Part shown: positions 11,941-38,904 of the stretch, one piece after another
Position numbering within the stretch: the stretch's first letter is position 1
Layout of the letters: each line of letters opens with the position of its first letter
Assembly (NCBI GenBank): GCA_964016885.1
Contig: OZ024748.1
Coordinates: forward strand, 54,746,001-54,810,000
DNA from: Eledone cirrhosa
Taxonomy: Eukaryota
DNA length: 64,000 bases
Direction of reading: 5' to 3'
Program-made: the position numbers and the translations under genes
Notes under the pieces: model-generated
What the model was told of the DNA's origin: nothing
Databases searched by the model: none
The model's input: the letters and a program-made list of their open reading frames with translations, nothing else

Positions 11941-12604
11941 TATATCAAAGATATATATTGAGTTAGGAACTCAAAATAGTCTCTTACAACAAAATTTGAA
12001 CACATATATGTAGATATCTGTGCAAAATTTGAACACATATGTATATATATCTATGTTCGTTTTTCTTTTATATTCTATTGTAATATACGGCTCGGAAATA
12101 TCTCTTTCTTAGAGCTATTTTGTTGTAAGAGACTATTTTGAGTTCCTAACTCAATATATACCTTTGATATATTCGGCTCCGTTAATTTGTTGAGCTATTT
12201 TAAATGTCAAATAAACCTGGCTGCGATTTTTAGTGGTGTAAGTTTGTGAGACACGCTAAGATACCATGTGCGCTATATTATATATAGCACACTATTCAGT
12301 TTCTTTATATACTTAGAAGTGTCTAGGATACTAATTCATCATTCACTGATGAGCTTGAATTGGTAATTCTATTCATAATTAACATTGCGAAACAACACCA
12401 AGTTGTCTGGGTGATTAGTAGTTACCACAATTGCGGTTTGTATTTATTTTCTTTATTTTCTTAAATTGTGACAAGCAAACCTAATTGTCTATAGTTAGTA
12501 TTCTTTCCACCTTAGCGAATCTGGTCCCTTACGATTTGGACACACATATGTATATATCTGTGTTCGTTTTTCTTTTTCTTTTTCTTTTATATTTTATTGT
12601 AGTA
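11941..12604 (+). mobile_element. Hammerhead-containing non-autonomous element (Penelope-like/retrozyme-like) between (TA)n tracts
   Basis: 55-bp inverted repeat (11941-11995 / 12117-12171); direct repeat of the 3' end (about 12027-12082 and 12533-12601); internal hammerhead; 3' fragment also at 17591-17640. Confidence 0.7.
12338..12415 (+). ncRNA. Type I hammerhead ribozyme motif (GUC)
   Basis: Stem I ATCATTCA/TGGGTGAT; CTGATGA 12346-12352; stem II closed by GC/GC with a long loop; GAAA 12389-12392; stem III ACAAC-accaa-GTTGT; predicted cleavage after C12407. Confidence 0.85.
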
Positions 12605-12683
12605 TTATATATATATATATATATATATATATATATATATATATATATATATATATATATATATATATATATATATATATATA

Positions 12684-12912
12684 TATTAAAATAGCAGATT
12701 AAAGTTTAAGCAAAGAATCGCTGCTTTCACCCTCAACGGGATCTTCTGAACAGTTTCAGAAGATCCCGTTAAGGGTGAAAGCAGCGATTCTTTACTTAAA
12801 CTTTAATCTGTTATTTTAATAAATATTTGCTCTACGGTTCTTATATATTTGATATATATTTATCCTTATCGAGCCCTCTTTGGATTTTAGTGTTCAAATT
12901 TATTATTATTAC
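12684..12912 (+). mobile_element. Fold-back cassette with variant hammerhead (CAGAAGA core); further copies at 17366-17545 and 30406-30556
   Basis: 67-bp arms (12684-12750 / 12755-12821, 3 mismatches, 4-nt loop) plus a 90-bp tail, flanked by (TA)n. Confidence 0.75.
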
Positions 12913-13060
12913 TATATATATATATATATATATATATATATATATATATATATATATATTACAGGGTGTGCCCCTAATAAATATTGCCTGTACATGTAAT
13001 CAAAGTGTGTATACATTTGGGGGGGGGGGACAACCTCTCTCTCTCTCTATATATATATAT

Positions 13061-13530
13061 ATATTAGATAATGATTTAAGAATGAAAACAATAACAAAGT
13101 CAAGTTATTTTACCTATTCATATAATTGTTTTACGATCGTTTCGGAGGGTTGATCATATTGACATATTCACTGATCTATAGCAGTTATATAACTGTATAC
13201 TATCAGACATCATATATAGGTTCGATGAAACCGTGTTCTTTCCTATATATGATGTCTGATAGTATACAGTTATATAACTGCTATAGATCAGTCAATATGT
13301 CAATATGATCAACCCTCTGAAACGATCGTAAAACAATGATATGAATAGGTAAAATAACTTTGTTATTGTTTTCATTGTTAAATTAATATCTAATATCAGA
13401 CACTGTATCTAAGGGATTAACTCGGCGAAACACGGAACCGTTCTATGGATTTCACTGGATTACTCGCTATCGGATTATATTGAGTTCTATCTACGGTACG
13501 GACCCTATCACGAAGGGTAGACAACATTGA
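13061..13530 (+). mobile_element. Long fold-back cassette (arms about 160 bp) with unique tail ending in poly(A)/(TA)n
   Basis: Arms 13061-13220 and 13242-13396, 21-nt loop; each arm carries GAAACGATCGTA, a hammerhead 3' half with palindromic stem III. Confidence 0.7.
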
Positions 13531-13686
13531 AAAAAAAAATTATATATATATATATGAATGTATGTATAGTCTATTTGGCAATATACCGTATGTTTAATTA
13601 AAAACATTTTGAAGACCTTGCGCTATCATTTTTAAAGTAGTGACAATGTCACTTACTTCTTTTTTTTCGGCAAAAGAAGGGAGAGA

Positions 13687-36421: not shown

Positions 36422-36604
36422 ATAATTGTTTCTACTTTAGGCACAAGGCCAGCAATTACCAAGTACATTACTGGTACTTTATTTTATCGACCCCCTAAGG
36501 ATGAAAGGCAAAGTTAACCTCGGCGGGATTTGAACTCAGAATAGCAAGGGCCGTAACTCTATGCGTCAAAGCATGGCATCCGACCCTCTACCGATACTGC
36601 CAAT
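36422..36604 (-). mobile_element. SINE family A, full length
   Basis: Consensus match. Confidence 0.9.
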
Positions 36605-36955
36605 ACATATAATATCTTATAGTATTTGATTAACATATAATATCTTATAGTACTGGATATACATATACTATTCTATAGTACTGGATATACATATATCTTA
36701 TAGTACTGGATATGTATACAATATCTTATAGTACTGGTTATAAATATAACATTTTATAGTACTGGATCTACATATAACATTTAACTAGTACTGTTGTCAT
36801 ATAACATTTAACTAGTTCTATTTCTAGTACTGTTGTCATATAACATTTAACTAGTTCTATTTCTAGTACTGTTGTCATATAACATTTAACTAGTTCTATT
36901 TCTAGTACTGTTGTCATATAACATTTAACTAGTTCTATTTCTAGTACTGTTGCCA
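36605..36955. repeat. Degenerate repeat of about 27 bp grading into a 39-bp minisatellite
   Basis: atatcttatagtactggatatac units, then about 4 copies of tttctagtactgttgtcatataacatttaactagttcta. Confidence 0.9.
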
Positions 36956-38301
36956 TGGTGGGTCATTGTACTCAATCATTGCACTCCCAATATATATTTC
37001 AGTTTGGTATTTTCTTATTGTTTTCGAAGCTGTCAATCCTCTTTACTGGGGTTTAGTAAGGGGCCACGTTTCTGTTCCATCGAAGAGCAAGAAGAAGATT
37101 ATTATTGTATTATTACTCTTTAATGAACAGTGAAGTTTCAGGACAATACCAGTTGTGATTTGGACAATACAATCGTAGAGAGAGAGAGAGAGAGAGAAAG
37201 CAAGAGAGAGAGAGAAAGAAAGAGAGAGAGAAATAAAGAAAGAGAGAGAGAAATAAAGAGAGAGAGGGAGAGAGAAAGAAAGAGAGAGATAGAGAGAGGA
37301 AGAAAAGAAAGAGAAAGAGAGATAGAAAGAAAGAGAAAGAGAGAGAGAGAGAGAGAGAGAGCGAAAGAAAAAGAAAGAGAGAGAGAGCGAAAGAGAGAGA
37401 AAGAGAGCGAAAGAGAGAGACAGAGAGAGAGAGAGCGAAAGAGAGAGAAAGAGAGCGAAAGAGAGAGAGAGAGAGAGAGAGAGAGAGGTATCTATATCAT
37501 TTCCATCTACTAATCTATTGAACAACCCAAAGTGAAATTTTTAATAAAAACATCCCATTGGCAGCTATTATAACAGTGTATGTGTATTAACTGGTTACAA
37601 TGACTCTACCACGATATAATAGTATTTCTGATTTTTCTTATTATTTTTCATTATTTAAAAAAATTTGTTATCGTTTCTATTTTCCTTTGAGTTTACTCGG
37701 TGCAATTTGCTTCCTTATAAATTCAAACTCTTTTTTCTGCTGCAATGTTTGTATTAAACTTTAACCTTTTAAATATAATGGTTATAACTTGTTTAACAAT
37801 GACATTATACATTTATAACTTCTAAACTGTAATTAGCTATTAAGTTTCCATTCTAACTCATCTCGTTCTCAGGAGGCACCTGTCTACACACATACATAAA
37901 TACATACATACACACACACACCTATATACATGCATACATACACACACACACACACACACACACACACACACACACACACACACACACACACACACACACA
38001 CCTATATAACGATCCCCTCCGTATGCATATATGTATGTATGTGTGTATATATATATATATATATATATATATATATATATATATATATATATATATATAT
38101 TTATATATACATGCATATACATAGAAGGATATATATATTTTTATATTTACATACATACATACATACAGGGAAATATATATATATATATATGTGTGTATGT
38201 GTGTGTGTGTGTGTGTGTGTATTTTTTTTTGAATATATACATACATATATATATATATACGATATATTAACAAATGTAAACTATATTTATAAAACCATAT
38301 T

Positions 38302-38366
38302 TATTTCATTATACATATTTCAAGGACACCAAGTTAAATTATGGTGTGCTTTCATCAGATAAAATA
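38302..38366 (-). ncRNA. Type I hammerhead ribozyme motif (AUA)
   Basis: Reverse complement TATTTTAT-CTGATGA-AAGcACACCA-taatttaact-TGGTGTcCTT-GAA-ATATGTAT-A-ATGAAATA: 8-bp stem I, 9/10-bp stem II, near-palindromic stem III. Confidence 0.85.
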
Positions 38367-38904
38367 TAATATAGACCAGTTTTATAAATAAATATTGACA
38401 TATCCTTAAAGAATGCGACCATTTCTGTTGGAAGCTCCCGGATATATATATATATATATATATACATATATACATACATACATACATACATATACACCTA
38501 CACTTAATGTGTATAATTCTGTTGGATAATATATGTTAAAGTCAGTGATAGCAACTGTAATTCAATTAAACCAGCCTTGTCACACATTGCGTCACATTGA
38601 ATCTCCATGAGAACTACGTTAAGGATACACGTGTCTGTGGAATGCTTAGCCACTTACACGGGAATCTAATGAACGGGCAGTTCCGTTGATTGAATCAACT
38701 GAAGTATTTGTTGTTGGAAACGACTGAGCTCCAACAAGAACAACAAACAGAAAATCTAAACAAGAATTTACGAACAAAACAGCTCCAGGTTTTGAAGACT
38801 TGGAATTTAATCACTTTTCTGATTAAGAATCCCCATAGAGGTTGATGAAAACTGTATCTGCAATGGTACAGTTTATACTGGTGAAGGGAATGAGAAATAT
38901 AACT

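Follow-up and report, generated by a model that had tools for sequence, protein, structure and literature searches.

A 64,000-nucleotide stretch of the Eledone cirrhosa genome (assembly GCA_964016885.1, contig OZ024748.1, positions 54,746,001 to 54,810,000; hereafter the window) contains a series of short islands that carry predicted hammerhead ribozymes and adjoin (TA)n microsatellites. Our analysis indicates that these islands are very probably reverse-transcribed insertions into (TA)n, several being truncated 3' ends of Hydra-clade Penelope-like elements (PLEs) and three being units that lack an open reading frame (ORF) and probably relied on the same type of enzyme for copying in trans. 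An earlier model-generated reading of the sequence (the original prediction) had described at least eight type I hammerheads with unrelated stems, belonging to many families of non-autonomous, ribozyme-processed retroelements. The recurrence of the islands and their inverted arms were confirmed by sequence comparison, and the proposed retroelement origin, Penelope link and multiplicity of families were borne out as well.

Hammerheads are named here by the first base of the 5' core, with the strand given. A strict type I descriptor identified five motifs in the window (13968-, 19778+, 29337+, 29786+, and 38358-) and none in any of 100 block-wise dinucleotide shuffles of positions 1 to 50100. 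Allowing a 2-bp stem II added 12346+ (shuffle mean, 0.03). The motif at 29786+ is a ninth, missing from the earlier eight, and it has stem I and stem III in common with 38358-, so that not all of the stems are unrelated. Three motifs that had been listed as variants (13687-, 17384+, and 17822-) fit the fold once relatives were compared. The first base of the 5' core in the second of these is 17389+; its core is CAGAAGA, with U-U at positions 10.1-11.1. The third, 17866-, has a 14-nt stem-loop III and, in its relatives, a 6-bp stem I that is partly lost from the window copy because an inversion replaces part of it. In the family of the first, 13725-, stem I is GCU/AGC; the window copy is altered in stems I and II, and on these changes its hammerhead is probably dead. 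All of the motifs, including the original eight, map onto predicted type I hammerheads. The corresponding families were designated A (29337), B (12346), C (13968), D (19778), E (38358), F (29786), G (13725), H (17389), and I (17866). Stem III is palindromic in families A, C, E, and F, near-palindromic in D, and longer in B, H, and I.

In order to examine conservation, the genome was searched with the islands. The eight islands searched directly gave 692 to 4070 first-look candidates each, of which only the best 40 per family were scored (86 to 99% identity); the 19778 island was reached via a sister subfamily. With anchors placed outside the 5' core, the core was found to be kept in 73 of 81 copies of the 17389 family, as CAGAnGA, and in 30/33, 48/60, 16/19, 7/9, 7/7, and 12/12 copies of other families. 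No 29337 copy was caught in this comparison, and 13968 was represented by just a sister subfamily. Compensatory changes between subfamilies were also observed; for example, stem II of the 38358 family has two swapped pairs, and stem I of the 17866 family has one. Core conservation and covariation, both proposed originally as checks, supported the assignment.

The same was true of motif frequency. A sample of 60 evenly spaced 10-kb stretches (600 kb) of the 3.0-Gb assembly contained 27 motifs, compared with 0 to 1 in ten shuffles. The claimed association with (TA)n was equally clear: a run of (TA)6 or longer lay no more than 157 nt away on the 3' side in 25 of the 27, whereas 15% of randomly chosen positions had such a run within 200 nt. 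The density of one motif per 3 to 4 kb put forward earlier applies locally (9 in 26.5 kb, in a window rich in (TA)n) and is several times the 1 per 22 kb of the genome sample, although the descriptors differ. If the sample is typical, the genome would hold, as a rough figure, 135,000 motifs, exclusive of U3-A8 and degenerate cores. A U3-A8 descriptor applied to the 600-kb sample and the window returned one minisatellite artefact and one weak match.

Family H was linked to a protein-coding element. Upstream of its hammerhead lies ~0.9 kb of 3' untranslated region (UTR), preceded by a reverse transcriptase (RT)/GIY-YIG frame of 713 amino acids. A protein search with this frame yielded 63 scored full-length frames with 93 to 95% identity, 39 of them stop-free. 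Thirty full-length loci were fetched, and the hammerhead was located 3' of the frame in 29. Their ends fell at 67 nt (13 loci) or at 155 to 165 nt (14 loci) past the core start; 28 terminated in (TA)n, 11 had a direct upstream pseudo-long terminal repeat (pseudo-LTR) at -219 to -224, and 12 had an inverted arm. The whole unit is ~3.3 kb, with a 1.1-kb 3' UTR and a 90-nt tail. Inspection of the frame (locus L242) revealed RWR (a conservative change from RWK), DKT rather than DKG, a CxCx5C linker (CNCRNRADC) with no CCHH, CxxC (CDLC) before EALE, and CxH (CKH) after LN. Fragments of the frame had no Pfam match; its homologues carry PF26215/PF28514, and one is named a GIY-YIG endonuclease. Among 16 PLE fragments submitted to Pfam, GIY-YIG or RT was recognized in four, none of them Hydra-type. 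The predicted family H hammerhead has three stems and GAAA/UH, and its CAGAnGA core is a U4A variant. On its frame and architecture family H is a Hydra-clade PLE, and it resembles Hydra-1_Obim by eye.

Families C and E likewise are, judging from their flanking frames, 5'-truncated 3' ends of protein-coding Hydra-clade PLEs. For family C, a same-strand Hydra-type ORF ends ~1.24 kb upstream in locus L233, with no (TA)6 between. For family E, the link is through L226, in which a Hydra ORF is followed by a 3' UTR that matches the 1.3-kb upstream region (84% over 559 nt). The sister subfamily of D lies behind a Hydra ORF and a shared 3' UTR in L346 and L352, with interruptions, and family D is probably a Hydra PLE 3' end as well. 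All of the frames linked in this way carry a C-terminal endonuclease, unlike Naiad PLEs (N-terminal endonuclease, no canonical hammerhead).

Families A, B, and G are, by their anatomy, ORF-less, circularly permuted non-LTR retrozymes with one predicted type I hammerhead each. In the 20 to 30 loci per family examined with 1.5-kb flanks, the upstream continuation of a copy was the sequence lying downstream. The k-mer walks closed at 474 nt (A), 507 nt (B; 25 loci), and 303 nt (G), with no branch into coding sequence. Real tandem copies confirmed the periods for two of them: a direct repeat in the window with a spacing of 507 nt (12027-12069/12534-12576) for family B, for which 40 of 2006 first-look candidates were scored, and copies 473 nt apart in L021 for family A. 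Clusters of A and G had no same-strand ORF that was not separated by a TA run, and those of B had one separate neighbouring insertion. The term non-autonomous therefore is apt for these three of the nine families (303 to 507 nt, ORF-less); it is wrong for H, C, and E, because their ends join Hydra RT/GIY-YIG frames, and probably for D. A, B, and G are likely to have been copied in trans by a Hydra-type enzyme. Two further ORF-less tandem units of ~460 to 470 nt with a hammerhead were noted (loci L111, L039, L073, L157, and L092). An octamer-like motif lies ~90 to 120 nt upstream of the hammerhead in these units and is possibly a promoter of the small nuclear RNA (snRNA) type; an snRNA-type promoter has reportedly been described for newt satellite 2.

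The Hydra stubs and the ORF-less units show the same pattern of insertion. Copies of either class terminate in (TA)n, at one or other of two preferred sites 70 to 115 nt apart, with a single such site in family G, and an inverted second arm is frequent in both. Comparison with read-through copies revealed a predicted 4-bp stem, R-Y-T-C/G-A-R-Y, starting 5 to 9 nt past the junction at 11 of the 13 end sites that have such copies. This hairpin is present in autonomous and non-autonomous families, has loops of 8 to 38 nt, and usually is followed by R-C. One of its pairs is G-C in families H, B, and D and A-U in E, I, C, and two further Hydra families; family A has a C-G to U-A swap. The background was 2.4% for the untuned pattern and 0.24% for a pattern tuned afterwards to the data; in the comparison with the untuned pattern, eight distal or other sites had uninformative read-through or a misplaced anchor. 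Five end sites from other families, all with terminating copies, served as negative anchors, and the hairpin was found at none of them; seven anchors had been intended, and two without terminating copies were dropped. Immediately past most junctions, the sequence is TA-like. Separately, (TA)n ends were also seen in non-Hydra PLEs with a C-terminal endonuclease (at least three types, at loci L172, L167, L174, L213, and L170). Each type has a minimal hammerhead of its own, and the hairpin was absent past the ends of these types.

The following steps are modelled on the Poseidon element PAc (PMC11167929; here and below, comparisons draw on parts of the cited papers). The GIY-YIG domain would nick (TA)n, and the freed 3' end would prime reverse transcription within the RNA, just 5' of one hairpin, which the protein would recognize as a landing signal. 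Copying would mostly stop early and leave 5'-truncated stubs, two opposed arms would result from priming on both strands or from a template switch, and the same TA runs would be reused by successive insertions. ORF-less RNAs bearing the hairpin would be copied in trans. The hammerheads would cut multimeric or tandem transcripts, and those with a short palindromic stem III would do so as dimers. We are evenly divided on the more specific proposal that the hairpin, small and bulged, is the start signal of Hydra-clade RTs, that its two copies fix both of the tail-defining 3' ends, and that viroid-sized hammerhead RNAs acquired it and so hijack the enzyme, in which case one mechanism would, with the U4A family, have placed on the order of 100,000 hammerheads in (TA)n.

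Several observations weigh against this account. Truncated 5' starts did not pile up at the predicted cleavage site in family H (3 of 81 within 8 nt) or G (1 of 20); family B gave a weak, post hoc hint (4 of 56 starts at 0 to +3, compared with ~0.5 expected), and no clear pile-up was seen for E, C, I, A, or K8. The description of the elements as ribozyme-processed was accordingly not upheld. Because truncated ends in H and G do not gather at the cleavage site, hammerhead cutting is probably not needed for each insertion. The linkage of family C comes from one locus, that of E from one, and that of D from a sister subfamily. No same-strand ORF was found upstream of family I in 20 loci, nor in 16 of 20 longer anchored loci, or upstream of family F in 20 loci; copies of I and F may simply be truncated, hiding any ORF link. 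The strict hairpin pattern failed at the A distal and G sites, which are near misses, so that 3 of 5 retrozyme end sites pass. Other PLE clades also are present in the genome, which bears on the enzyme that moves A, B, and G, and the family searches favour long copies because only the best 40 candidates were scored. In addition, initiation by PAc needed no homology to the target (PMC11167929), unlike the TA-like junctions seen here.

The alternatives fare worse. The idea that AT-rich, palindromic DNA produced the motifs by chance is vanishingly improbable and is ruled out by the shuffle controls (27 motifs against 0 to 1), by a core kept across unrelated stems, and by the compensatory changes in stems I and II. 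Minimum-energy folding nevertheless fits that explanation, since the motifs folded no better than shuffles (z, -0.1 to -1.8; one of eight regions ignored), as does the Rfam scan proposed originally, which gave no useful support. In the whole window, the 150 matches listed of 452 were microsatellite and hairpin matches to microRNA-type families, with no hammerhead among those listed, and positions 11900 to 14260 gave just RAGATH-1-hammerhead at the family B motif, below threshold (18.8 bits; E, 6.3). A second alternative, that all of the families are independent non-autonomous, ribozyme-processed retrozymes, agrees with the anatomy of A, B, and G and with the missing ORF link of I and F in the loci examined. 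It is very improbable, given that H, C, and E continue upstream into Hydra RT/endonuclease frames, which refutes it for H, and that copies do not start at the cleavage site.

A third possibility is that A, B, and G are pseudo-LTRs of unsampled autonomous PLEs or satellite units spread at the DNA level. Permuted ends arise from tandem PLE transcripts too, and the sample was 20 to 30 loci per family with 1.5-kb flanks; we nonetheless regard this as quite unlikely, as the walks close on themselves without a coding branch, the neighbouring ORFs are separated by a TA run (A and G) or belong to a separate insertion (B), and the copies are dispersed, with fixed ends in (TA)n and inverted arms. It also seems unlikely that the (TA)n was written or expanded at insertion by a telomerase-related RT, or that the elements were merely retained there. 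Some copies terminate in just five TA units, and slippage could seed repeats because the RNA past most end sites is TA-like. Unrelated families, however, flank a single run on its two sides, (TA)n is present at the 5' junction of many stubs as well, and nearly all Hydra families are recorded with a (TA)n preference in the supplement of PMC8557442. Insertion of PLE-copied RNAs into existing (TA)n remains our preferred reading.

The insertions are distributed along the window as follows. A family B insertion (11941-12605, +) comprises ~1.1 copies of the 507-nt ORF-less, circularly permuted unit, with a short inverted 5' arm and a (TA)n end; its type I hammerhead (12338-12415, +) has a 2-bp stem II base, a 4-bp stem III, and a GUC site. 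A two-armed stub of the Hydra PLE 3' end of family H follows (12679-12915, +), with 96 to 98% identity to the full-length element L243; its inverted arm (12679-12750) runs to the proximal site and its direct arm (12752-12915) to the distal site. Part of the 303-nt permuted ORF-less unit of family G (13556-13820, -; hammerhead 13688-13728, with the altered stems) and a two-armed family C stub of a Hydra-type PLE 3' end (13855-14260, -; hammerhead 13919-13973; 97% to L233) precede two opposed tail stubs of a Hydra-type PLE of the L023/L187 type (14304-14560; 79% over 190 nt to the L023 3' region), which retain no hammerhead. The family H stub at 17343-17547 (+) is the final 205 nt of a Hydra-clade PLE, with a U4A-core hammerhead (17384-17434) and a tail that holds the proximal hairpin GCTC...GAGC. 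It is followed by a palindromic family I stub (17724-17932, -; hammerhead 17822-17872) and a family D stub truncated within stem I (19774-19860, +; hammerhead 19774-19827; ~80% to the sister subfamily).

Further along lie a two-armed family A insertion of the 474-nt ORF-less permuted unit (29098-29574, +; hammerhead 29332-29413, palindromic stem III) and a family F stub (29677-29896, +; hammerhead 29778-29855). Opposed tail stubs of a non-Hydra C-terminal-endonuclease PLE of the L174 type (29965-30357; 74 to 93% to the L174 3' UTR) keep no hammerhead. Sequence comparison identified a third family H insertion with two opposed partial arms (30404-30558) and a second family I copy with the core CAGATGA (34558-34733, +). 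A family J stub (30590-30710, +) is the tail of the Hydra-type PLE L010, matching its 3' UTR, with the hairpin after the proximal end; the hammerhead of L010, as read by eye, combines a U3-A8 core with a long stem II and is mostly absent from this stub. L010-type stubs are very common, with 10 sites in the 600-kb sample and another in the window at 3114-3301. The family E stub of a Hydra-type PLE 3' end (38257-38444, -; 99% to L110) has its hammerhead at 38302-38366, with a near-palindromic stem III in this copy. Several hammerhead-less islands in between are tail stubs of further PLEs.

Other repeats were noted in passing. Positions 47840-47962 are a two-armed stub of a young 614-nt tandem unit (L367:1010-1624) with 1528 candidates, the best scored showing 97 to 99% identity. 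By eye, its hammerhead parts are ordered substrate, GAAA, CUGAUGA, with a 7-bp stem I, a 6-bp stem III, and an extra 6-bp helix, resembling the type-SGC permutation of PMC10085705; Rfam gave no match for this unit. A long palindrome at 13065-13400 includes the 3' half of a hammerhead (GAAA, palindromic CGAUCG, UA) with no 5' core, and no further copy was present among the loci fetched. Many further hammerhead families with very long stem II occur at L353, L130-type, and other loci; these loci also include an additional motif with a CAGA core, which has an extended stem III and is unrelated to family H. A repeat of ~190 nt resembling a short interspersed nuclear element has more than 15 window copies by sequence comparison (15884-16060, 16815-17194, 27109-27296, 36422-36604, 40261-40764, and others), some of them inverted pairs next to short TA runs. 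Positions 50100-64000 are occupied by a C/A-rich tandem array 14 kb long, with units of ~25 nt and a strong strand skew.

The population itself is no surprise, because this kind of system is already known. How PLEs choose internal start sites and whether they mobilize retrozymes are questions still open in the portions of the literature consulted, and the young intact frames, fixed ends, and shared covarying hairpin described here offer a direct way to test both. The U4A family, with at least 39 stop-free copies, likewise allows one to ask whether hammerhead cleavage matters to the element. If ~1 motif per 22 kb is typical, stubs make up a large share of the microsatellite borders in this genome. 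The words ribozyme and hammerhead are absent from the main text of a recent octopus repeat annotation (PMC13282606).

With respect to known systems, the original prediction had left open whether such elements were catalogued, and the kind of element is indeed already published (Craig et al. 2021, PMC8557442, section 11 and File S1/S2). Section 11 describes Hydra-clade families as nearly all inserting in (TA)n and bearing hammerheads, and the supplement catalogues Hydra-1_Obim from Octopus bimaculoides. Our elements resemble that clade in their single RT-GIY-YIG frame (RWK-like, DKT, CxCx5C, no CCHH), type I hammerhead near the 3' end, pseudo-LTR, inverted 5' arms, optional tail, and (TA)n. Since most Hydra hammerheads in File S2 have U-U at 10.1-11.1, this variant, shared here by families H, G, and I, is a clade trait; U10.1-U11.1 also is described in PMC3088659. 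Family H differs in its unit of ~3.3 kb, compared with <3 kb (a descriptive tendency, not diagnostic), its tail of 90 nt, compared with 30 to 40 nt, and its CAGA core, compared with CUGA in every File S2 hammerhead. In addition, many families coexist here, and the hairpin past the end sites is unmentioned in the parts of that paper compared. U4A has no occurrence in the main text, figures aside, of Perreault et al. 2011 (PMC3088659). Our literature search, subscription papers, Repbase/Dfam, and preprint supplements aside, returned nothing on these families, cephalopod retrozymes, or the hairpin. Work by Lunse et al. in 2017 reportedly treats PLE hammerhead variants and may cover U4A.

As short, AT-rich, ORF-less units found as monomers and tandems, A, B, and G resemble metazoan non-LTR retrozymes, which have been suggested to rely on PLEs (Cervera and de la Pena 2020, PMC7229834; Li et al. 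2026, 10.64898/2026.07.22.740005) and, in the latter report, to derive from PLE pseudo-LTRs. Unlike those, A and B are 474 and 507 nt (compared with the 220 to 390 nt described), and copies of all three mostly comprise one or two units, target (TA)n, and show inverted arms and fixed ends of the PLE type. Poseidon PAc of Anolis nicks AT-rich DNA on both strands in vitro and uses two internal start sites that define the tail, with hammerhead cleavage dispensable (Frangieh et al. 2024, PMC11167929); the two internal start sites, AT-rich target, and hammerhead upstream of the starts are shared with our elements. PAc belongs to another clade and starts in an AC-rich stem-loop within the ORF, whereas the ends here lie in non-coding sequence, at TA-like letters and 5 to 9 nt ahead of a small stem. 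The thousands of dispersed single motifs derived from truncated PLEs recall the minimal PLE hammerheads of Cervera and de la Pena 2014 (PMC4209133), which can act as dimers in tandem transcripts through their palindromic stem III; this stem, opposite-strand pairs, and U3-A8 and U10.1-U11.1 variants all have precedents in PMC4209133 and PMC3088659. The system is thus of known kinds, combining Hydra-clade PLE stubs with non-LTR retrozymes, and the shared hairpin and the U4A family appear to be new relative to the literature searched.

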